A stretch of DNA of 59,078 nt, counting the filler, from Catajapyx aquilonaris (taxonomy: Eukaryota), in the NCBI GenBank assembly GCA_000934665.2. It is 3 parts of 3 records of this genome, joined end to end, with 100 filler letters (N's around TTAATTAATTAA, not from the genome) between each part and the next. Parts side by side here need not be neighbours in the genome. Positions count along the whole stretch, not along the records: positions 1 to 19,627 come from JYFJ02006415.1; 2 more parts are not named here. One strand, written 5' to 3'. Positions within the stretch are counted from its first letter, which is position 1, and the number at the start of each line of letters is the position of its first letter. Of this stretch, positions 1 through 47,900 are shown in pieces. The position numbers and the translations under genes were made by a program. The notes beneath the pieces are model-generated. The model did no database searches and had not been told where the DNA came from. It saw nothing but the letters and a program-made list of their open reading frames with translations.

Positions 1-2029
1 CGTATTGTTCCTCGTGCACGTGAACCAAGTCCGGCCAAGTCATCTCACTTAGCTTATAGCCTCGAAGAAAGGCTTGGCGTCCACCACGATCTCACGATTT
101 TGTACGGCGGAGTGGACAAGGCATGGCTCCCAGGCACTATCTCACAGGTTTTTTCGGCAGACGACTTGGCGCGTTTTTTACGAGTGCGTTTTTGAGGGGG
201 ATATATGTAACTCGAAATCGTCAAAATGTGGACTTGGGACCTTTGGATACTCAAGGTTTCAATTGCATCTTATATGCTTATAAAAATGTGGCAACAAAAT
301 GATGATGTCAATAAAAAGCAACTAAATCTACACATGGTGTCCCTTTCACGCAGCTGTGCACACTATAACATAAATGTGATAATAAAATGCTTTGCAGCCG
401 GACGTATAAAACAGCCTCTGGATGAATGCATTACAATGTAATGAAAATTTTACAAGTTCCTTGAATAACTTCTATATGCAAATACTGTCTGGCACAAAAT
501 CTATTGTTATTACACTGTGATTGACCACAATGGCTGATTGGTAGGTCCTGCCGGCTAATGTGGTGCGGCTCATTATCGACCCAAACGCTATTGTCACGAA
601 CAAAAGAGTTCATCAGTAGCTGTCGTTCTGAATCAAAATGTAATGGCTTCATAAAGTCCAACAGCTCCCGATTCATCGAAATTGCTATTGAAACGCATAA
701 CAAACAGAGTATAAATATGCATTCCGAATTTTTTTTCCGTACCGAGCACAATCTACGTTAAAAATAAAACCATGGTTATATTTTACGCGCACAGTTCCAT
801 CAAACAAAGTCTCGATTGCATTAAAGCCCACCACTTTAACGAGCGCGCTTCTTGCAATTTAAACTCATAAATGTGCTGAACGTTTCTAGTGGCAATTAAG
901 CTTCAGTCGACCGCAAGTTTCCCTTGAAAATATTTCCCTCTCAGGAACCCCACCAGCTGGAAGCTTTCGGTTTTGAAATTTTCAACATTGCGCCAACGTC
1001 TCCTCCGCCGCCGCCGTCATAATTATATTACGCATGTCATTGGCCAAGTAAAATCCAGATGAATAATTTCATGGTCCCTTCCAGCAGCAGCACAGATTAT
1101 TTTTCACTCTCTCTAGCTTCATCCCAGGGCCAAGAATTTCAAATGCAAACCGATTTTGGAGACTTGTGTTCGCCCCAGCTAACAGGAGATGACGACTTTC
1201 CCTCCCTTTTTTCATACCTATGGGGGGGGGGGGTCACAGGGACCCTTTTTTTCATTATTCAGGAGAGTACAGGTTGCATTATTTAAGGGGCCTGAAAGGC
1301 GACACTTCCCCGGGCAGGACAGTTGCGTATTAATTTTTTCCCGAGGCTCCAGTGCGTGAATATATGACGGGGATTTTCAAGCCCTGGTCTGCTGGTCGAG
1401 TCCTTTCCTAGGGGGAATATGTCGGTGGTGCAGAGTACAGTGCATTACCCATCCGGACACATGTTGAGTACAACTGCGTAGGCGTGGTGGGACTGACTCA
1501 CGCAAAACCTTTTGTTCGGATTTGTATGTATATGGATTGAAGCGATGCAGCACGTCAGGTGTGCATTAGTGTCAGATGCACACAGTAGTTGTCAGGATTC
1601 ACGTGAAGTTAAATTCAAAACACCTTTGTGTCTACTTACTTTGTTATGCAGCAGATTATATTGCGACGTAGTAGAGAATTTCCATATTTATGCTTTTGTC
1701 ACACAAAAGTCAAGATTAGTTGGCAATAACCCCTCATTTCAGTTTGCAAAATATTATATTTTTGTGCTGATTTGTAGCGCTTATAGACGGATGCATTCAA
1801 ATTGTTGAGTTACTGTAAACTTGTGCATTTATAACACTATAAATATTCGTGTGCACACTATATTTTAAAATGACACGGAAGAGACACTGCAGATGTGATT
1901 ATGCGTGCTGTGAAGTTACGTGCAATTTCCGTTGTTAAAAAGTACACCAGTCACGCTCATTCCGGGTACAAAAAAGCGACCTTCGTTGTACAGTCAGTTT
2001 AGAGCTTTCATTCTGAATTTTTAAACCAT

Positions 2030-2093
2030 GGTCTATGACGCATTACTATATTATAAATAGGCGAGTACCATACCGACGAATAACAATTGCACG
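2030..2093 (+). promoter_or_regulatory. Conserved TATA-containing core promoter of the OBP-like genes (copy 1)
   Basis: GTCTAYGACGC...TATAAA..GAGTACCAT...GAAT.ACAATT.C.CGATG is conserved upstream of all four ATGs (also ~6247-6309, ~12165-12227, ~17342-17412). An upstream AAGCGRCCTT block is also shared. Confidence 0.65.
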
Positions 2094-3822
2094 ATGGCAC
2101 CCTTAAGATTGGGTGTCTCGCTCTTGCTGCTGGCGACACTCACTTGGGCAGACGATGCAGGTACTGTAATACGGACAGCAGTTATTCTGTACGCCTGCAG
2201 TTACTGAGCCAAAATAATTTATTTTTGCAGACCCATGTGACTGCCCAAATTGGCAAGAGGACAATATAATGGAGGTTGGTAAAAATATATGCTACTTATA
2301 CGTTATATCGCTTCATTTTGCTTATTAATATTTTACTTTCGTAGAAATGCTGTTTAGGGACTGAGGCTATAACGATGTGGGACGACTGCGTGAATGAGAA
2401 GGGGGTGGAGCCAGACCTGTGGAAGGGCATGCTTGATTATGCTAGTAGAAAACCATCAGAAGAATGTTTCACCGACGATATTAAAGCAGTCTTCAGTGAA
2501 TGGATTGACGTTGATAAGGAAAAGGTGCATGTTTGTCTCGGTGTATTTAAATTTATAATACAATCGTTATTTCTGACAGTTAGAAATCGCTACAAAAAAG
2601 TGCAAGAAAACGCAGCATGGATTACAAAAATAATTATAAGACATTCTCTATTGACATGATTCCTCTCTCTTTCAGTGCGTATCTCATTGCGTCTTAAAGG
2701 GATTGGATTTGGTAAGTAAAATAATATTTTTAATACCCTAAAATATGTCATTTTGAGTCCTGCGTTTTCGCAACATCGCCTGAGTGACAGTACTTGTCTG
2801 TTTGTTTAATATTGGCCAATGCTTCATCGAAAGATTTACTGCGATCTTCTTTTATCTCATCCACATTACTACATCTGGCTATACGTAGTAATGGACTCAC
2901 AATGACAGCATATAAAGATAATCCTGATCCAATTGTTTATGACAATTAACAATGTTTAGCTGAAAGAAGACGAATGCGTGGATCAAGATAAACTAATTAA
3001 AAAGGTGACCGACATGGTAGCCAAAAAGGGCATGACCCTTGAACCTTCTGAAGAGCTAATGAATTGCTTGAAAGCTGCAGACCAAGGTATCAAACGAGCA
3101 GGTTGGTGTGACATAACTTGACCTAATTACACATATATTCGACAGGGCCAGACACCAAATGCATCGACTCGACCAATATGTTGGAATGCTTCTGGGAGTT
3201 TTCATTTAAAGATGTAAGCGTAAAAATTAATGAAGCAGTCATGAATCTTGTAACCGCAATATTAAAATTCGACAGTTCACTATAAAATGTTGGGAGGAAA
3301 ACTGCAAACATGGACGTCGAAAGAGGGAAATCAGTGATGATGTTGAAGGAATTGCTGACTCCAAATATGGCAAAAAAGCTGATTGTAATATGATGACGAC
3401 GGCAACAGCGGCACCCGAAGCTGCTCGAAATCGTCGAAGGAATCGTCAAAGAGGAAGAAGTAGTAGACGTAAGGCTGACTAATTACATATTTATTTTTAT
3501 GTAAGGTGCAACAGTAAGAGAGTGTTAAATAACACGTATTCAATACTGATCGTCATTAGTCTCATCTGGAAGTATCATATCAAATTTCTTATTTCCTGAA
3601 TTATTTTGAATTTATTTAGAAATTATTTTGAATTAATACTGACTCATATTTTTAAAAAGCCAAGTTGTACCCAGAAACTCAATTTAAGTGAAAAATATTC
3701 CCATGGTGACTCTTACATATTTATGGCATACAATCTCACTTGAGGGAAGGTTTTATTTATTTTGCATGTGATCTTTTGCAGAAAGAAATGGAGGACGAGG
3801 TGTAGTCCGACACTCTCCATAA
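2094..3822 (+). CDS. Secreted Cys-rich odorant-binding-protein-like protein, copy 1 (251 aa, long basic C-terminal tail)
   Basis: Exons 2094-2160, 2231-2274, 2345-2524, 2676-2711, 2960-3086, 3146-3213, 3276-3468, 3782-3822. All introns are GT-AG and the frame is continuous (756 nt). Signal peptide MAPLRLGVSLLLLATLTWA; C-x3-C-x42-C-x11-C-x8-C spacing typical of insect OBPs; AATAAA at 3861. The exon architecture matches three paralogs. Confidence 0.85.
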
Positions 3823-4590
3823 ACTGACATCGTCAAACTGACTGGAATCATGTTTCCCTTAATAAATGAATCATCGTTATAGAAACCGACAGTAACTGGT
3901 AAATTATATAAAATCGTAATTTTTGTGTACGTATCATGTAAATGGAATTGTTCGACGTTCTTTGATGACCAGACAGGGCTACGCAATAAAATGTGTTCAA
4001 TGCACTGTACTTCTGGAAGAAAAATAAGGCCTCCGACGATTAAACTTTTTAGCTCAAGTGACTGCACGTCGTGTTATTTTACCAGTTTTATTAAATTCCG
4101 TGTTTAATTTTACCTTACACGTGACATGTTGCGGAGGGGAGACATTTGAATATTTGGGAATAGTTTTGGCCCACATCATATGATTCTTATTGAATTTGAA
4201 CATAGGCTACTGCATGCCTCTTTTGTTGCATAAAGGGGCGGTTACTTAGACACAAATTAATATCAAATTATAATAATATAGTGATTCGAAATAAGCTTCA
4301 ATCCGTAATTAACGGGCACTTATTCCTACAATTATTAGATACTTGATGGAGGCAGCATTTTGCTGTCCTTTCCGGTCCTTCAGCAAAGTATAGAAAGATA
4401 ATTAGGATGGGTCAATAACATAATAAATTATTGCAATACGCACGGGTGAGGCGATTCGACCGTGGTCTATTTGAAAATCTCGTCAACTGTATTAACAAAC
4501 ATTCCACAATTTATTCATCTTCATTCACTTTATGCTATTGCAATGTCAGTCATGCACGAAGAAAGTTTCTTGCCCGACTTCTTTTGCACT

Positions 4591-6309: not shown

Positions 6310-8917
6310 ATGGCATTCCTGGAATTTTGTGCCTCGTTCTTGCTGCTGACGACACTGGCTTGGGTAGAACAAGCAGGTAAGGGCAACATTATTTTATTCT
6401 GTACACCGCGGTAATCAACCTGAAGTAACTGGATTTTTTTTTTTTTGCAGACCCAGCCTGTGAATGCATTAATTGGGACACGGATAATGTACGGGAGGTT
6501 GGTAAATTCAGGCTACCCTTTTTTTATCTTATTCAATTTGCATCTTAATGTTACTATCTTGTGTAGAAATGCGATATAGGCACTGAGACTGGAGCGCTTT
6601 GGGACAAGTGCGCGAAGGAAATGAACGTGGACCCAGAACTGTGGGAGGCCGTTGGTGTACATTCTAGTCGGAAAAATGCGGAAGAGTGCCGTGTCAACCC
6701 TGACAGTGCAGAAATATTTAAAAAATTTGGTAAAGTGGAAAGAGAACAGGTACTATAGTTTCTTTCACTGTATATTTAACATCATCATTATTGCACAAAG
6801 AATGGGAAACACTCTTCGCGGATTATAAAATAATTATGGCAGACTCTCTTTTCACGTCTTTCCTGTTTCTCTTTCAGTGCGTGACTTATTGCATCTTAAA
6901 GGAGTTGGGTGGGGTAAGTAAAAGAAGTGTAATAGAAACTGTCATTTTGAGTCCTGCGTTATAACAACATTGCATGATCACGTGTGTCTTTTTCTTTAAT
7001 TGACCAAAGCTTTATACGCTATGAAAAGTCTTACTGCGATCTCCTTTTTATCTCACATTACATCTGGCTAGTAATGGACTCACGATGGCGGCGCGCCGCC
7101 ATCGTGAGTCCATTACTTCATTAATTCGCCGCGGCGAATTAATGAAGTTAATGATCATTCAGATCCAAGTATTTATGACAGTTTACAATATTTAGGTGAA
7201 CGCTGACGAAACCATCAATCAAGAAGAACTACTCAGAAAGGTGACCGAAATGGCAGCCGAAAAGGGAGTGACACTACCTTCTGACCAGATCAAGAAATGC
7301 TTGAAAGATGCAGGCAAAGGTATCAAACAAGTTTTAACCCTTTGATGACGGAGTTTTTTTTCCCCCTTTTCCGGAAATTTTATGACCTCGCCGATTTTCT
7401 TGAAATTCGGTGCATTGGTAGCCCACCCCAAGGGATGAAAAACGCACATATAGTTACCTGATCAAAATGACCTCGTGACCCAATTTTGAGGGGGGCAGAG
7501 GTCAAATCATAAAATATCGACCTCACTGATTTTCTTGAAATTCGGTGCATTGGTAGCCCACACCACGGGATGAAAAACGCACATATAGTTACCTAATAAA
7601 AATGACCTCGTGACCCAATTTTGAGGGGGGCAGAGGTCGAATCATAAAATATCGACCTCACTGATTTTCTTGAAATTCGGTGCATTGGTAGCCCACCCCA
7701 AGGGATGAAAAATGCACCTATAGTTACCTGATCAAAATGACCTCGTGACCCAATTCTGATGAGGGCAGAGGTCAAATTCCAACCTCACCGATTTTCTTGA
7801 AATTCGGGGGTTATACCAAGGTTATACACACTTACATTTTTTTGCGTACACGCGTACTACCCGTCTTAGTGAATCACAAGGGAGACTTTGCAAGTGCCAG
7901 TCACAAATTTTCTTGAAATTCGGCGCATTGACATATGTCCCCTCCAATATGGGTCACAGGGTGATGTCGAGCAGGGAACTATAGGTGGGTTTGTCATCCC
8001 TTGGTGTGGGCTACTAATGCACCGAATTTGAAGATAATCGGCGAGGTCGGAATTTTATGATTTGACCTCTGCCCCCCTCAAAATTGGGTCACGAGGTCAT
8101 TTTGATCAGGTCACTATAGGTGCGCTTTTCATCCCTTGGGGTGGGCTACCAATGCACCGAATTTCAAGAAAATCGGTGAGGTCGAAAGTTTATGATTTGA
8201 CCTCTGCCCCCTCAAAATTGGGTCACTTGGTCATTTTGATCAGGTAACTATAGGTGCGTTTTTCATCCCTTGGTGTGGGCTACCAATGCACCGAATTTGA
8301 AAAAATCCGGTGAGGTCGAAATTTGACCTCTGCCCCCCTCAAAATTGGGTCACGAGGTCATTTTGATCTGGTCACTATATGTGCGTTTTTCATCCCTTGG
8401 GGTGGGCTACCAATGCACCGAATTTCAAGAAAATCGGTGAGGTCGAAATTTTATGATTTGACCTCTGCCCCATCAAAATTGGGTCACGAGGTCATTTTGA
8501 TCAGGTAACTATAGGTGCGTTTTTCATCCCTTGGGGTGGGCTACCAATGCACCGAATTTCAAGAAAATCGTTGAGGTTGAAATTTTTTGCGTTGAAAAAT
8601 GACCCAAGTTGGCCGGGCAAATCTCCGGAAATCATATGATGGCTGTAGGCAGCAAAGGGTTAAGTGACACAACTTGACCTTATTTACACATTTTCCATAG
8701 GGCCTGCAACCAAGTGCGTGGACTCAAGCGATATGATAGATTGCTTTTGGGACTTGGCATTAAAAGAGGTAGGCCTTGTTTACTTTTAAAAGAGTTCATG
8801 AAGTGTGCATGATTCTTGTAATTGCAATATCATAATACCACACAGTACGGCCTGAAATGTTGGGAGGACAACTGCAAGGTTGGACGTCGAAGGATCGAAA
8901 TCAGTCGTCGAAGATAA
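6310..8917 (+). CDS. Secreted 12-Cys OBP-like protein, copy 2 (198 aa)
   Basis: Exons 6310-6376, 6451-6497, 6567-6749, 6878-6913, 7196-7319, 8701-8768, 8846-8917 (597 nt, open). Protein runs MAFLEFCASFLLLTTLAWVEQADPACEC...CVTYC...KKC...TKCVDSSDMIDC...KCWEDNCKVGRRRIEISRRR. Non-coding last exon from 9268; AATAAA at 9350. Confidence 0.88.
7338..8659. mobile_element. Non-autonomous piggyBac-type element with inverted arrays of a ~135-bp unit (foldback-like), in intron 5 of copy 2
   Basis: TTAA|CCCTTTG...CAAAGGG|TTAA ends. The paralogous intron of copy 3 (13201-13257) has a single TTAA, the empty site. About 3 units at 7384-7807 and about 4.5 inverted units at 7977-8585. Confidence 0.85.
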
Positions 8918-9672
8918 AGAGGTGGAGGTAAGACTGACTAATTACGTTTATTTCCAGAGTAATTTGCAATGGTATGTTAGCAATAACATGTAGACTATAC
9001 GACGTATTTACAACTGATCTGCACTAACCTAATCTGGAAATATGCATAACATTTTTTTAAAAATTCAGTGACTGACCCAAAAATAATATTATTTACCTAT
9101 TAAAAGTCCAAACTAATGTTCTAGACGTAACTAAAGGTCCGATAATATAAACTCAAATTAAGGGAAAACATTATGTTGGTGACTTTAACATTTTATTTCA
9201 TACCACAGGACTTGAAGTATAGCGTTTTATTACTTACGTTTTACAGAACTTATTTGTCCTTTTGCAGAAAGACGTATAGGATGAGGCCTATAGTCCAGCT
9301 CTCTACTTAAAACTGACATTGTCAAAATGACTGGATAAATGTTTCCCTTAATAAATGAACTATTCTTGCTGAAAACTAATACTGTAGTTGCTGCAAAATC
9401 AAACTATAATTTCTTTGATGTAAGTACAGTATAAATGGAATTGTTCGGTGTTCGCTGATGACCAGGAAGCGCTAAATAATAATTATTGTGTTAGAAATAA
9501 AATTGTTTTAAAATGTGATTCAAATGCACAGGTTCCAAATAAAATATGAGCAACGCATTTGAACTTTCCCTATTACTGCCTTTCCCGCTTTTACTGCCTT
9601 TTCATGAACTTCCCCTTTTCCTTGCGACCTTACAGTGTATTAAAACAAAATGACAGAATAAAGGAAATAAAT

Positions 9673-12227: not shown

Positions 12228-13477
12228 ATGGCATTCCTAGAATTTTGTGCCTCGTTCTTGCTGCTGACGACACTGGCTTGGGTCGAGCATGCAGGTAAGG
12301 ACACCATTCTTTAATTCTGTACACCGGTAATCAACTTGAAGTAACTGGAAAAAATATATATGTTTTTGCAGACCCAGCCTGTGAATGCATTAATTGGGAC
12401 ACGGATAATGTACGGGACATGGTACGAGAGGTTGGTAAATTCAGTCTACCTTTTTTTATCTTATTCAATTAGCTTCTTAATGTTACTCTCTTGTGTAGAA
12501 ATGCGATATAGGCCCGGAGAATGGAACGCTTTGGGACAAGTGCGCGAAGGAAATGAACGTGGACCCAGAACTGTGGGAGGCCGTTGGTGTATATTCTAGT
12601 CGGAAAAATGTGGAAGAGTGCCGTGTCAACCATCACAGTGCAGAAATATTTGAAAAATTTAGTAAAGTGGAAAGAGAACAGGTACTATAGTTTCTTTCAC
12701 TATATTAATTTAATATCATCATTATTGCACAAAGAATGGGAAACTCGGGCCGCGGATTACAAAATACACTATAGCACACTCTCTTTTGACATGTTTCCTC
12801 TTTCTCTTTCAGTGCGTGGTACATTGCGTCTTAAAGGAGTTAGGTGGGGTAAGTAAAAGAAGTGTAATAGAAACAGTCATTTTGAGTCCTGCGTTATCAC
12901 AACGTGGCATGAGCACGTGTCTTTTTGTTTAATTGACCCAAGCTTTAAGAAAAGTTTTACTGCGATCTCCTTTTATCTCACATTACATCTGGCTAGTAAT
13001 GGACTCACGATGGCGGCGAATTAATGAAGTTACTGATCATTCGGATCCAAATATTATGACAGTTTACAATATTTAGGTGAATGCTGACGAAACCATCAAT
13101 CAAGAAGAACTACTCAGAAAAGTGACCGACATGGCAGCCGAAAAGGGAGTGACACTACCTTCTGACCAGATCAAGAAATGCTTGAAAGATTCAGGCAAAG
13201 GTATCAAACGAGCATATTTAAGTGACACAACATGACCTAATTACACATTTTCGACAGGGCCAGAATCCAAGTGCGTGGACGCAAGCGTTATGTTAGATAA
13301 TTGCTTTTGGGACTTGGCATTAAAAGAGGTAGGCCTTGTTGACTTTTAAAAGAGTTCATGAAGTGTGCATGATTCTTGTAATTGCAATATCATGATACCA
13401 CACAGTACCGCCTGAAATGTTGGGATGACAACTGCAAGGTTGGACGTCGAAGGATCGAAATCAGTCGTCGAAGATAA
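12228..13477 (+). CDS. Secreted 12-Cys OBP-like protein, copy 3 (203 aa)
   Basis: Exons 12228-12294, 12372-12430, 12499-12681, 12813-12848, 13077-13200, 13258-13328, 13406-13477 (612 nt, open). It has frame-preserving 12-nt and 3-nt insertions relative to copies 2 and 4. Non-coding last exon from 14246. Confidence 0.88.
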
Positions 13478-13819
13478 AGAGGTGGAGGTAAGACTGACTA
13501 ATTACGTTTATTTCTAGTGTAATTTGCAACAGTATGTTAGCAATAACAATGCAGACTACGTATTTGCAACTGATCTGCACTAACCTAATCAGGAAATATG
13601 CGTAACATTTTTAAACAAAATTTCATAGTGACTGACCAAAAAATAATATTATTTGCTTATTAAAAGTCCAAACTAATGTTCTAGACGTAACTAAAGGCCC
13701 GATAATATAAACTCATATTAAGGGAAAACATTATGTTGGTGACTTTTAACATTTTATTTCATACCACAGGACTTGAAGTAGCGCTTTATTACTTACGTTT
13801 TACAGAATTTGTCCTTTTG

Positions 13820-14232: not shown

Positions 14233-14917
14233 TGTCATTTTGCAGAAAGACGTATAGGATGAGGCCTACATAGTCCAGCTCTCTACTTCAAACTGACATT
14301 GCCAAAATGTCTGGATAAATGTTTCCCTTAATAAATGAACTATGCTTGCTGAAAACTAATACTGTAGAATTTGCTGGAAAATCAAACTATAATTTCTTTG
14401 ATGTAAGTATAATAATGGAATTGTTCGGTGTTCGCTGATGACCAGGAAGCGCTACATAATAATTATTGTGTTATTGTACTGTACTTCTGGGAGTAAAATG
14501 GCGGTCTGGTTAAATTTATTAGCTCTTAGAAAATTGTTTTAAAATGTGATTTAAATGCACAGGTTCCAAATAAAATATGAGCAACGCATTTTTGAACTTT
14601 CCATATTACTGCCTTTTCATGAACTTTATTCCCTTTTCCTTGCGACTTTACAGTGTATTAAAAACACAATGACAGAATCAATGAAATAAATGTGAAGGGT
14701 TAAATGAAATAAGGGGTTAAGCCCACAGAACCCAACTTTTGGAAAACAAGAAAAAATCGATTGAAAAAATATATATAACTTATATATAGCTATTTCATCC
14801 AAAATTATATCTTATGTCACTCTCTACCTTAGAACCATGCCAGTTCATTCACGGTTCTTAATTGTCATAAGTTTTACAGTTATAGCTCAACGAAGTCTAG
14901 GGAAGGCAATGAAATCC

Positions 14918-14920
<3 letters not shown>

Positions 14921-14995
<75 letters not shown>
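14921..14995. repeat. (TAA)25 microsatellite
   Basis: Read directly; the paralogous site at ~9899 has only about 3 units. Confidence 0.95.
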
Positions 14996-17412: not shown

Positions 17413-18641
17413 ATGGCACTCCTGGGATTTTGTGCCTCGTTCTTGCTGCTGGCGACGGTGGCGTGGGTAGACCATGCAGGTACGTGCAGCAGTTATTATG
17501 TACAACGGTAATCAGCCCAAAGTAACTGAAAAATAATTTATTTTGTGCAGACCCAGCCTGTGAATGCATTAATTGGGACACGGATAATGTACAGGAGGTT
17601 GGTAAATTCAGGCTCCCTTTTTAATCTTATTCAATCTGCTTCTTAATGTTACTCTCTTGTGTAGAAATGCGATATAGGCACTGAGACTGGAGCGCTTTGG
17701 GACAAGTGCGTGAAGGAAATGAACGTGGACCAAGAACTGTGGGAGGCCATGGGTGCAATTTCTAGTCGAAAACATACGGATGAGTGTCGTGTCACCCCTG
17801 AGAGTCCCGAATTATTTAAAAAATTTGGTAAAATTGAAAGAGAAAAGGTACTAGTTTCTTTCACTATATTTAACATCATCATTATTACTGACAGTTAGCA
17901 ATCATCGCACAAAAAGTGGGAAACGCGTGGATTACAAAATATGTCGCACTCTCTTTTGACGTGTTTCCTCTTTCTCTTTCAGTGCGTGGCTTATTGCATC
18001 TTAAAGGAGTTGGGTGGGGTGAGTAAAAGAAGAGTAACAATAACCGTCATTTTGAGTCCTGCGTTATCACAACATCGCATGAGCACCAGTCTTTTTGTTT
18101 AATTGACCAAAGCTTCATGAAAAGTCTTACTGCGATCTCCTTTTATCTCACATTACATCTGGCTAGTAATGGACTCACGATGGCGTCGACTTAATGATCA
18201 TTCGAAGCCAAGTATTTACGACAGTTTACAATATTTAGGTGAATGCTGACGAAACCATCAATCAAGAAGAACTACTCAGAAAAGTGACCGAAATGGCAGC
18301 CGAAAAGGGAGTGACACTACCATCTGACCAGATAAAGAAATGCTTGAAAGATACAGGCAAAGGTACCAAACGAGCAAATTGAAGTGGCACAACTTGACCT
18401 AATTAACTTACATATTTTCCATAGGGCCAGCAACCAAGTGCGTGGACTCAAGCGATATGATAGATTGCTTCTGGGACTTCGGATTCAAAGAGGTAGGCCT
18501 TGTTGATTTTTAAAAAATCATGAAGTGACCAAGATTCTTGTAATATTGCAATATCATAATACCACACAGTACCGTATAAAATGTTGGGAGGACAACTGCA
18601 AGGTTGGACGTCGAAGGATCGAAATCAGTCGTCGAAGATAA
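17413..18641 (+). CDS. Secreted 12-Cys OBP-like protein, copy 4 (198 aa)
   Basis: Exons 17413-17479, 17551-17597, 17665-17847, 17983-18018, 18239-18362, 18425-18492, 18570-18641 (597 nt, open). Non-coding last exon from 18979; AATAAA at 19052 and 19068. Confidence 0.88.
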
Positions 18642-19627
18642 AGAAGTGGAGGTAAGACTGACTGATTACGTTTATTTCCTAGTGTAATTTGCAACTAACA
18701 GTCTGTCAGCACTAACATGTATTTACAACTGATCTGCACTAGCATAATCTGGAAAGACGCGCGTAACACATTTTGATTTCATACAGACTTACCTAAAACT
18801 AACACTTACTTTACCCATTCAAAAGTCCAAACTAATGTTTTCGTCGTAACTAAAGGCCCTGTAATATAAACTCAAATTAAAGGAAAACATTCTGTTGGCG
18901 AATTTCACATAAATTTATTTCATACAACATATCCTAAGGAAGCGTAATATTTATTTTACCAAATTTGTCCTTTTGCAGACAGACGTATAAGATGAGGCCT
19001 ACAGTCCAGCAGAAGCTGTCTTACTTCAAACTGACATTGTCAAAATGACTGAATAAATGTTTCCCTTAATAAATGAACTATTCTTGCTGAAAACAAACCA
19101 TAACTTTTCTGATGTAAGAAGTACGTATACATGGAATTGTTCGGTATTCGCTGATGACCAGAAGGCGCCACATATTGTGTAGCGCCAGGGCCACCTAGAG
19201 ACAAGGCCAGGGCGCCGGAATCATGACGTCACGATAGGGGGCGAGCTCCTCCGTAAGCGGACTATGGCGGGAGCACATTTTTGTACACGTTTTCTCCATT
19301 ATTTTCATGCCAATGCATCGGAGGATCATAACACCCTCTAATTGATATCTGGAGAATGATTTGGTGATTGCAACGATGTGAAAAAATCGCACATGTTTTT
19401 GTTAGACAGTAGTAAATGGTGGGGGAGAACCCAGCTGTCCTTCGTCCAGATGTCAATCACTTATTCCCTCGAAATTATCCACTCTGATTTAGATAACACT
19501 GGTCTACAAAATTGTTGTACAATTGATCTGCAAGTGTTGGGTATGTACTGTATGTAATTATCAAGAGCTAAATGGTATTATGTTGTGTAATGTGCTAATT
19601 TTGGTTCAATGCTTATGAGTATAACTT

Positions 19628-19727
19628 NNNNNNNNNNNNNNNNNNNNNNNNNNNNNNNNNNNNNNNNNNNNTTAATTAATTAANNNNNNNNNNNNNNNNN
19701 NNNNNNNNNNNNNNNNNNNNNNNNNNN
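19628..19727. other. Artificial contig-join spacer
   Basis: Exactly N44-TTAATTAATTAA-N44 (100 bp, stops in all six frames), identical to 39354-39453. Confidence 0.95.
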
Positions 19728-36340: not shown

Positions 36341-36844
36341 TCACATGCATGCTTCCCTTGGTATCAACGCGCACAAGTACTCATGTGGGAATGCTATGGG
36401 GCCACTCAGCTGCCCCGTAGAGTCCTTAGAGTAAAATTTTCTTCCCATCCGGACCATACACTTCATCTTGATGGGGAACGACACTTTTATTCCTTCTCCG
36501 AACCTATTGAAGATCTTGTACCAGCTGTTTGACAGTTCGAGACCCTCAAAGTCTTCAAGGAAATAAAGACGCCAACTTCTGGACATTGCTGTACCCCTGC
36601 TGCCAAAGAGCACATTGAATGCATCGACTCGGAAAGTTATCCGTAAGTGGCCACTGCGTGATGATTTCCTGGTGAGCTCCCGAGCGATTTTTTGCAAAAA
36701 GACTTCTTTAGCTTCAGCTAGAACTTCGGCACTAAGTTTAGGTGAGTAGTAGCTCTCTTTTGCAGCTTTGGTCAGATTTGCTCCAGGCTCCCAAGTGCAG
36801 GACGCTTTGGTGTATCCTTTCCACTGGACCAAGTACTTGTGTCC
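36341..36844 (-). CDS. Chromodomain-containing terminal exon (probably transposon-borne; upstream exon not found)
   Basis: Acceptor TTTCTCATGTAG| then GHKYLVQWKGYTKASCTWEPGANL, matching the chromodomain consensus YLVKWKGY..x.TWEP..NL. Open for 167 codons to TGA. Confidence 0.7.
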   Translation of the reverse strand, partial: GHKYLVQWKGYTKASCTWEPGANLTKAAKESYYSPKLSAEVLAEAKEVFLQKIARELTRKSSRSGHLRITFRVDAFNVLFGSRGTAMSRSWRLYFLEDFEGLELSNSWYKIFNRFGEGIKVSFPIKMKCMVRMGRKFYSKDSTGQLSGPIAFPHEYLCALIPREACM

Positions 36845-39353: not shown

Positions 39354-39453
39354 NNNNNNNNNNNNNNNNNNNNNNNNNNNNNNNNNNNNNNNNNNNNTTA
39401 ATTAATTAANNNNNNNNNNNNNNNNNNNNNNNNNNNNNNNNNNNNNNNNNNNN
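39354..39453. other. Artificial contig-join spacer
   Basis: N44-TTAATTAATTAA-N44. Confidence 0.95.
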
Positions 39454-46765: not shown

Positions 46766-47900
46766 TGATAATTCCAACCGTGCAAGCTGCGCGAACTGTG
46801 GTGCGCACTCGGTTGAGCTCGTAAAAAAATTCTGCGCCTATCTGAATTTTTCTCGTGCAATTTCGCCATTGATTTTTGATATTTTAGAACTGATTTAGCA
46901 CAAATCTGCATTTCCTTTTTTTTTTAAAAAAAAAAAATAAAGTGTGTGGAAAGTAGATAACCAGTTGCTGCGGTTCCTGTGTCCACAGAAACACCCTTTG
47001 ACCTGAGCCTTGGGGTATTGATTCAACCAGACAAGAGTCAATAATATAGGCCCGGATTATAGGCCTACGCCTGCTGAAATCGTGTAGGCATATAACTTCC
47101 GGAAATGCGTTTGCAGAAAATGACTTACTAATAAACCCACCCCGGCTACTTAAACTTTCATAGACTGCGCGAAATGCAATGTTTGCGCTGTACAGGTGAG
47201 GGCTCCGGGAAAACTATCTGACGCGACCGAGAGAGAGAGAGAGAGANNNNNNNNNNNNNNNAAAATAAAATCGAGCATTAATTAAAAAAAGAAGCCCTCT
47301 TTGTTGCTCTGGTTTGTTTTTAATTTGTAGTCCCGGATATTTAAATTGGACGGAAAAAAATGCGATTAATGATGAGGTGGGTAATTAACTAATTTTGCAA
47401 GCACTTTGTAATACTTCGCGGATTTATGCTTGCTCAGGATTCGAGAGAAAATCACGCGCATAAAGGCAACAGAAAATTGTTTAGCAATTACAATTAATTA
47501 ACTCGAGAAATGTGCGAACTTTAGGATTTAAGCTTATTGCGAAAATCTACGTGTCCTATAGTTGATTTTGGCGATTTCGGCTTACTCTATAATCTCGTTT
47601 GAAGTTTTGGAGGGTTGCCTAACCTGCCGGGTGATTCCTATCTCCCTCCATCTATGTGAGGGATGTGGTACTACGTGGACTATAAGTAAAACTTCTTACT
47701 AAAATCTAAGACGGAATTATTGTTGTCAATTTTTCAGCGATTTCGGCTTCGTTATACATAGATAACCACCTGTTAAATTTTAGCGTGTTGTCTAACCTGC
47801 CGGATGAGCCCTATCATGCGCCATTTATGTGAGAGACAATGTACTACGGTGGGCAGTCTAGGAGCTTGTATTATAACTGCTTACGAGCCTTTAACCTATA

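Follow-up and report, generated by a model that had tools for sequence, protein, structure and literature searches.

The window, a stretch of 59,078 nucleotides (filler included) from Catajapyx aquilonaris, is eukaryotic DNA with 40% G+C and short GT-AG introns. It contains a tandem array of four fast-evolving genes for proteins that resemble odorant-binding proteins (OBPs), of which copy 1 is a divergent, expressed member. Copy 1 is an 8-exon gene on the plus strand (2094-3822) whose 756-nt reading frame encodes a 251-aa predicted secreted protein. Its final two exons occupy 3276-3822 and are separated by an intron of 313 nt; all its introns are GT..AG. The exons of copy 1 are listed here together with their presence in a contig of run X5, which is described below.

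2094-2160, plus strand: exon 1, the ATG and the predicted signal peptide (MAPLRLGVSLLLLATLTWA, followed by DDA); the spliced contig begins at 2092.
2231-2274, plus strand: exon 2, PCDCPNWQEDNIME, with the first two conserved cysteines; the X5 contig carries the joint 2160>2231.
2345-2524, plus strand: exon 3, 60 aa, with C39/C40, C52 and C78; in the X5 contig.
2676-2711, plus strand: exon 4, with C98-x3-C102; in the X5 contig.
2960-3086, plus strand: exon 5, with the extra C115 and with C145; in the X5 contig.
3146-3213, plus strand: exon 6, with C157-x8-C166; in the X5 contig.
3276-3468, plus strand: exon 7, with the final two domain cysteines (C179, C184) and most of the C-terminal tail; in the X5 contig.
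3782-3822, plus strand: exon 8, QRNGGRGVVRHSP, ended by TAA (3820-3822); the X5 contig carries the joint 3468>3782.

Run X5 comes from the same organism but from a different sample and study; its kind is unrecorded, and it contains 26% of the sampled words. Four DNA-type runs may be the source of the assembly, and one of these DNA runs, X1, was compared with X5. One 767-nt X5 contig, aligned to positions 1900-4300, spans 2092-3830 with 0 mismatches, and all seven introns are gone at the predicted junctions. We call run X5 RNA-derived because its contig is free of every copy 1 intron; no copy 1 splice joints were seen in X1 at 1900-4300. The contig carries the 3468>3782 junction and the six others, and the mRNA of copy 1 with its tail is therefore real. 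With exons 7 and 8 joined in this way, the tail sequence given by the sequence-only reading was correct letter for letter.

Copies 2-4 were found by tblastn with copy 1, and their splice sites were then placed by hand. They are three intact genes in which all introns are GT-AG. Their positions, together with those of the shared 3' elements, are given below.

6310-8917, plus strand: copy 2, 7 coding exons, 198 aa, ending in CKVGRRRIEISRRR and a stop; the exon-8 homologue, from about 9268, is 3'UTR.
12228-13477, plus strand: copy 3, 7 coding exons, 200 aa, ending in CKVGRRRIEISRRR and a stop; exon-8 homologue from about 14246.
17413-18641, plus strand: copy 4, 7 coding exons, 198 aa, ending in CKVGRRRIEISRRR and a stop; exon-8 homologue from about 18980.
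8918-8927, 13478-13487 and 18642-18651: stretch from stop to last junction in copies 2, 3 and 4, with the last exon starting at 9268, 14246 and 18980, respectively.
3850-3870, 9339-9359, 14319-14339 and 19057-19077, plus strand: a 21-mer with AATAAA in the 3'UTR, identical in all four copies.

The ending CKVGRRRIEISRRR, described earlier as invariant in copies 2-4, was indeed present in three of three. In these copies the stop codon precedes the final exon junction by 10 nt, and each of them therefore has a 3'UTR intron. The exon-8 sequence of copy 2 was found in a second X5 contig, as an exact 30-mer (9280-9309).

Copy 1 is the outlier of the array, with dS of 0.38-0.47 to the other copies as compared to 0.08-0.14 among copies 2-4. 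Pairwise dN/dS over the whole CDS of the four copies is 0.57-0.90. When copy 1 is compared with copies 2-4, its exons are 61-81% and its introns 62-84% identical at the nucleotide level; identity is 75-81% over the opening 63 nt of exon 7 and 78-84% in introns 4 and 5. Twelve mature cysteines are nevertheless conserved in all four copies. A coding sequence no better conserved than its introns, yet with 12 invariant cysteines, is the pattern that a fast-evolving scaffold with fixed disulfides would leave. Because exons are no better conserved than introns, the G-RR shared among the paralogs is no evidence of constraint and lends no weight to the sequence-only reading.

Several other features of the window were recorded. 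The 3'UTR 21-mer is identical in all four copies, although these otherwise differ by 20-40%; a role in polyadenylation or regulation could account for this, or else local gene conversion. Intron 5 is 1381 nt long in copy 2, versus 57-62 nt in the other three copies. It is filled by two tandem repeat arrays with units of about 134/135 nt, at 7384-7777 (2.9 copies) and 7928-8586 (5.0 copies), which show 87-93% matches and whose two consensus units look mutually reverse-complementary. An (AAT)n microsatellite without imperfections, 25.7 units long, lies at 14919-14995, downstream of copy 3. An open frame on the minus strand (36344-36844) matches the Chromo domain (PF00385, E 2.1e-08) and is probably a remnant of a chromovirus-type retrotransposon. 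Runs of N occur at 19628-19727 (just downstream of copy 4), 39354-39453 and 47247-47261.

We examined the likeness of the encoded domain to OBPs through its leader, its cysteines and library searches. Signal peptides were judged by eye from the n, h and c regions of the spliced proteins, and one is predicted in all four copies, with a hydrophobic core followed by TWA/AWV-type ends. The six-cysteine signature of OBPs is C1-x(15-39)-C2-x3-C3-x(21-44)-C4-x(7-12)-C5-x8-C6. The central six cysteines of copy 1 are spaced by x19, x3, x42 (with one extra Cys inside), x11 and x8; those of copies 2 and 4 by x20, x3, x41, x11 and x8, and copy 3 is the same except for x9 in place of x8. The spacing thus fits the signature. 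The earlier description of an OBP-like secreted protein is upheld to this extent, by a predicted signal peptide, OBP-like cysteine spacing and expression.

Library searches were made with single exons. Pfam gave 0 families at E<=10 for six single-exon translations of copy 1 (fragments of 22-64 aa; the spliced protein was never scanned), and PDB profile searches with the exon 5 and exon 3 alignments only gave 0 matches each at E<=10. A HMMER profile of exon 3 from the four copies had 3 matches at E<=0.001 among 1.84 billion representatives, all of them repeat or unrelated proteins. Exon 3 yielded 7 candidates, none of them scored, in a word-indexed library of longer proteins only, and no copy 1 orthologs were found in the library searches with this exon. 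The ESM Atlas returned Cullin_binding-like clusters for exon 3 with recognition below threshold, which we took as fragment noise.

Like insect OBPs (PF01395, PBP_GOBP), these genes form a tandem multi-exon array of fast-evolving members, each with a signal peptide and a small secreted domain as predicted, and the motif C-x19/20-C-x3-C-x41/42-C-x11-C-x8(9)-C lies inside the 12 conserved cysteines. They differ in the single-exon searches, which gave no Pfam, PDB-profile or library match, in an extra N-terminal C-x-C and C-terminal C-x4-C and, in copy 1, in the added 67-aa polybasic tail. Among OBPs, the nearest are many-cysteine forms of the Plus-C type, for example Anopheles OBP47 with six disulfides; this subclass is defined by extra conserved cysteines and a Pro directly after C6. 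The extra cysteines are present here, but the residue after C6 is Phe in all four copies (CFWE/CFWD), so that the Pro typical of the Plus-C subclass is missing. With a fitting cysteine spacing and no profile match from single-exon queries, we describe the domain as OBP-like.

After the last domain cysteine (C184), the spliced exons 7 and 8 of copy 1 read KHGRRKREISDDVEGIADSKYGKKADCNMMTTATAAPEAARNRRRNRQRGRSSRQRNGGRGVVRHSP and then stop. This 67-aa tail contains 14 R, 5 K, 7 G and 7 A and has a net charge of +12, as compared to -19 for the 162-residue domain. Its residues are 67% disorder-promoting and 13% hydrophobic; in charge and hydropathy it lies well beyond the boundary towards disorder, and it is probably disordered. 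The following features were located in it.

3312-3326, plus strand: G187-R-R-K-R191, then E-I-S, in the reading frame; a Gly and a canonical R-x-[KR]-R furin-type site.
3327-3377, plus strand: EISDDVEGIADSKY (net charge -4), then G206-K-K (3369-3377); absent from copies 2-4.
3384-3386, plus strand: Cys211, the one cysteine in the tail, which brings the protein to an odd total of 15.
3426-3468, plus strand: start of the Arg-rich stretch (RNRRRNRQRGRSSR onwards), inside the slippage-prone AATCGTCGAAGG/AATCGTCAAAGA repeat.

A second R-x-[KR]-R, R225-N-R-R228, lies within the Arg-rich stretch. Beyond the conserved twelve, copy 1 has cysteines C40, C115 and C211, and its cysteine count is 14 (even) without the tail and 15 with it.

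A post hoc chance test with 20,000 shuffles of the 67-aa tail was performed. At least one R-x-[KR]-R was found in 52.5% of the shuffled tails, at least two G-[KR][KR] in 9.2%, both motif types in 5.2%, and a G-dibasic inside the first seven residues in 4.2%. RRKR may be a by-product of composition, because more than half of the shuffled tails contain such a motif. Given a basic tail, the motifs exceed chance weakly; the real oddity is the basic tail itself and not its motifs.

Passages of PMC3083689 and PMC3281273 give R-x-[KR]-R as the furin consensus and place furin substrates in the secretory pathway, and those of PMC3281273 add that the flanks P7-P14 and P3'-P6' should be solvent accessible and flexible. 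The furin site claimed by the sequence-only reading stands for copy 1, where R-R-K-R is followed by E four residues past C184 and the core H-G-R-R-K-R/E-I matches the motif. It does not extend to copies 2-4, none of which has R-x-[KR]-R; their G-R-R-R, followed by I, has Gly at P4 and the aliphatic Ile at P1'. In copy 1 the P3'-P6' flank (SDDV) is hydrophilic. The P7-P14 flank (KCWEENCK) would be part of the fold because P8 and P13 are domain cysteines, and these cysteines may hinder convertase access to RRKR. On motif and flanks, we place cleavage at this site tentatively, at a little under an even chance.

The comparison of the four copies bears on the origin of the tail. Copies 2-4 stop at GRRRIEISRRR and are without the segment that begins EISDD in copy 1. 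They lack 96 nt of exon 7, with the gap between GAAATCAG and TCGTCGAAG adjoining a GAAATC direct repeat, and another 2, 4 and 9 nt missing from exon 7 bring the total (96+2+4+9) to 111 nt, or 37 codons. Since this is a multiple of three, the exon-7 phase is kept. Intron 7 and the exon 8 homologue are kept with the same acceptor and splice phase in all four copies. In the frame of copy 1, the three short copies all have TGA where copy 1 has CGA. Their first stop (TAA) falls in the AATCGTCGAAGG/AATCGTCAAAGA repeat, where the alignment is ambiguous, so that it may stem from substitution or from small indels. When the extra exon-7 segment was compared with the window by blastn-short, only 10-12-nt chance matches were found; the window therefore holds no donor sequence for it. 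From these four copies, the tail is fairly likely to be the ancestral 3' coding end, truncated in the common ancestor of copies 2-4. This origin is favoured because of the spliced 3'UTR exon, the frame-preserving length changes and the second, CpG-type stop.

Because the TAA can be explained by small indels, a stop-loss extension in copy 1 is a less likely alternative. The tail might then be without function, the product of a slippage-prone repeat of Arg codons in which indels occurred or a stop was lost; translation would run on across the 3'UTR exon as far as the following stop, and the basic motifs would be compositional accidents. The near-chance frequency of the motifs for this composition would suit such a neutral extension, as would the poor conservation of exons relative to introns, the dN/dS values and the position of the Arg-rich part in a 12-nt tandem-like repeat. 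Copies 2-4 manage without a tail, and just about 20 former-UTR codons would need to be open. However, copy 1 would have to lose two in-frame stops, at the TAA and TGA positions, and every length difference in exon 7 keeps the frame. Expression of the mRNA with its tail in a second sample also speaks against it, as does the fact that an ancestral gene would seldom have a 3'UTR intron. We regard a neutral extension as unlikely, although it deserves serious weight.

It is rather improbable that the tail stays on as an anchor. An uncleaved tail could tether the acidic carrier to anionic surfaces such as glycosaminoglycans, cuticle or membranes, or fold back on the domain, and Cys211 could form a covalent dimer. 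The charge asymmetry between domain and tail and the unpaired 15th cysteine would fit such a role, and RRKR abuts the folded domain, with the cysteines at P8 and P13 perhaps limiting access. Against this stands the R-R-K-R/E-I core, a canonical furin-type motif in what is predicted to be a secretory protein. There is a slim chance that the protein is a true precursor with an OBP-fold carrier. Its acidic domain would then chaperone and neutralise an Arg-rich C-terminal peptide released by a convertase, perhaps with a small amidated peptide, and it could belong to lineage-wide furin-type processing in the OBP-like families of this arthropod.

The sequence-only reading had gone further and proposed a prohormone-like carrier-plus-peptide precursor that would yield a His-amidated carrier, a EISDDVEGIADSKY-amide and an Arg-rich cationic peptide. 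Copy 1 does share with neuropeptide and prohormone precursors a predicted signal peptide and the G-RRKR and G-KK motifs; Gly precedes both basic clusters (G187-RRKR, G206-KK), and only about one shuffled tail in twenty has both motif types. It differs from them in being mostly a disulfide-rich domain instead of spacer peptides, in a second site that is Lys-Lys and then Ala, and in a predicted peptide that is not conserved and matches no family tested, with 0 Pfam families for exon 7. Amidation requires amidating enzymes in the expressing cell, and these are mainly neuroendocrine. According to passages of PMC6585902 that cite Veenstra (2000), cleavage sites of insect precursors are usually Lys-Arg, dibasic sites before an aliphatic residue are rarely cut, and cleavage at Lys-Lys is less likely still. 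These rules, as given in those passages, therefore speak against Y-G-K-K followed by A in copy 1 and against R-R-R followed by I in copies 2-4.

Release of EISDDVEGIADSKY-amide would need this unlikely cut at Lys-Lys before Ala. The 14-mer is absent from three of three paralogs, as is the whole YGKK segment, whose conservation in orthologs had been suggested as a check. The Arg-rich part, which had been proposed as a cationic peptide, has R-N-R-R inside it at residue 225 and is 7% hydrophobic; it would fragment and is not amphipathic. This hydrophobicity and a single Pro also led us to reject the idea that the tail is an antimicrobial peptide of the amphipathic kind. Neither amidation nor a cut at Y-G-KK is thus supported: a His-amide on the copy 1 carrier is improbable, and a released EISDDVEGIADSKY-amide would be still more improbable. 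Full-text searches of the literature yielded no OBP with a convertase-processed, dibasic-processed or polybasic tail and no link of OBPs to furin or dibasic processing. In the retrieved passages that join OBPs with furin or C-terminal extensions the terms merely co-occur, and a processed OBP tail is described nowhere in them. A full prohormone-like precursor is accordingly very doubtful, and the copy 1 tail shows little sign of one.

The explanation that we tentatively prefer treats copy 1 as an OBP-like paralog of the ordinary, fast-evolving kind, whose polybasic extension is dispensable and may well be clipped at RRKR. The tail would represent the 3' coding end that the family originally had, which copies 2-4 would have shortened through the 111-nt in-frame loss and stop codons while they go on splicing a last exon that is now untranslated. 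A tail shortened in copies 2-4 would therefore be dispensable for the domain. In copy 1, a furin-type convertase of the secretory pathway might cut behind R188-R-K-R191, and a second cut might follow R225-N-R-R228. Trimming of the basic residues by a carboxypeptidase could then leave the acidic carrier domain free of the tail. The tail would be a removable polybasic extension, serving charge neutralisation or matrix binding until it is cut, and not part of a hormone-like precursor.

There are known counterparts to such an arrangement. Furin-type convertases cut polybasic C-terminal extensions in the pro-IGF-1 E-peptide, the PDGF retention motif and the tails of class-3 semaphorins. Copy 1 is like them in its predicted order of a folded secreted domain and then a disordered Arg/Lys-rich tail that starts at R-x-[KR]-R. 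It differs from them in having no sequence relationship, and its tail is not conserved even in the neighbouring paralogs. If cut, the copy 1 tail would resemble these removable polybasic pieces of some growth factors.

As it stands, the array shows that the C-terminal ends of tandem OBP-like genes can be rapidly remodelled, and that basic low-complexity tails yield convertase-like motifs through composition alone. If copy 1 is cut at RRKR, OBP-like carriers could include pro-proteins with a removable polybasic piece. This would help to locate and explain the deposition of such proteins, in a gland, a matrix or the sensillar lymph for instance.
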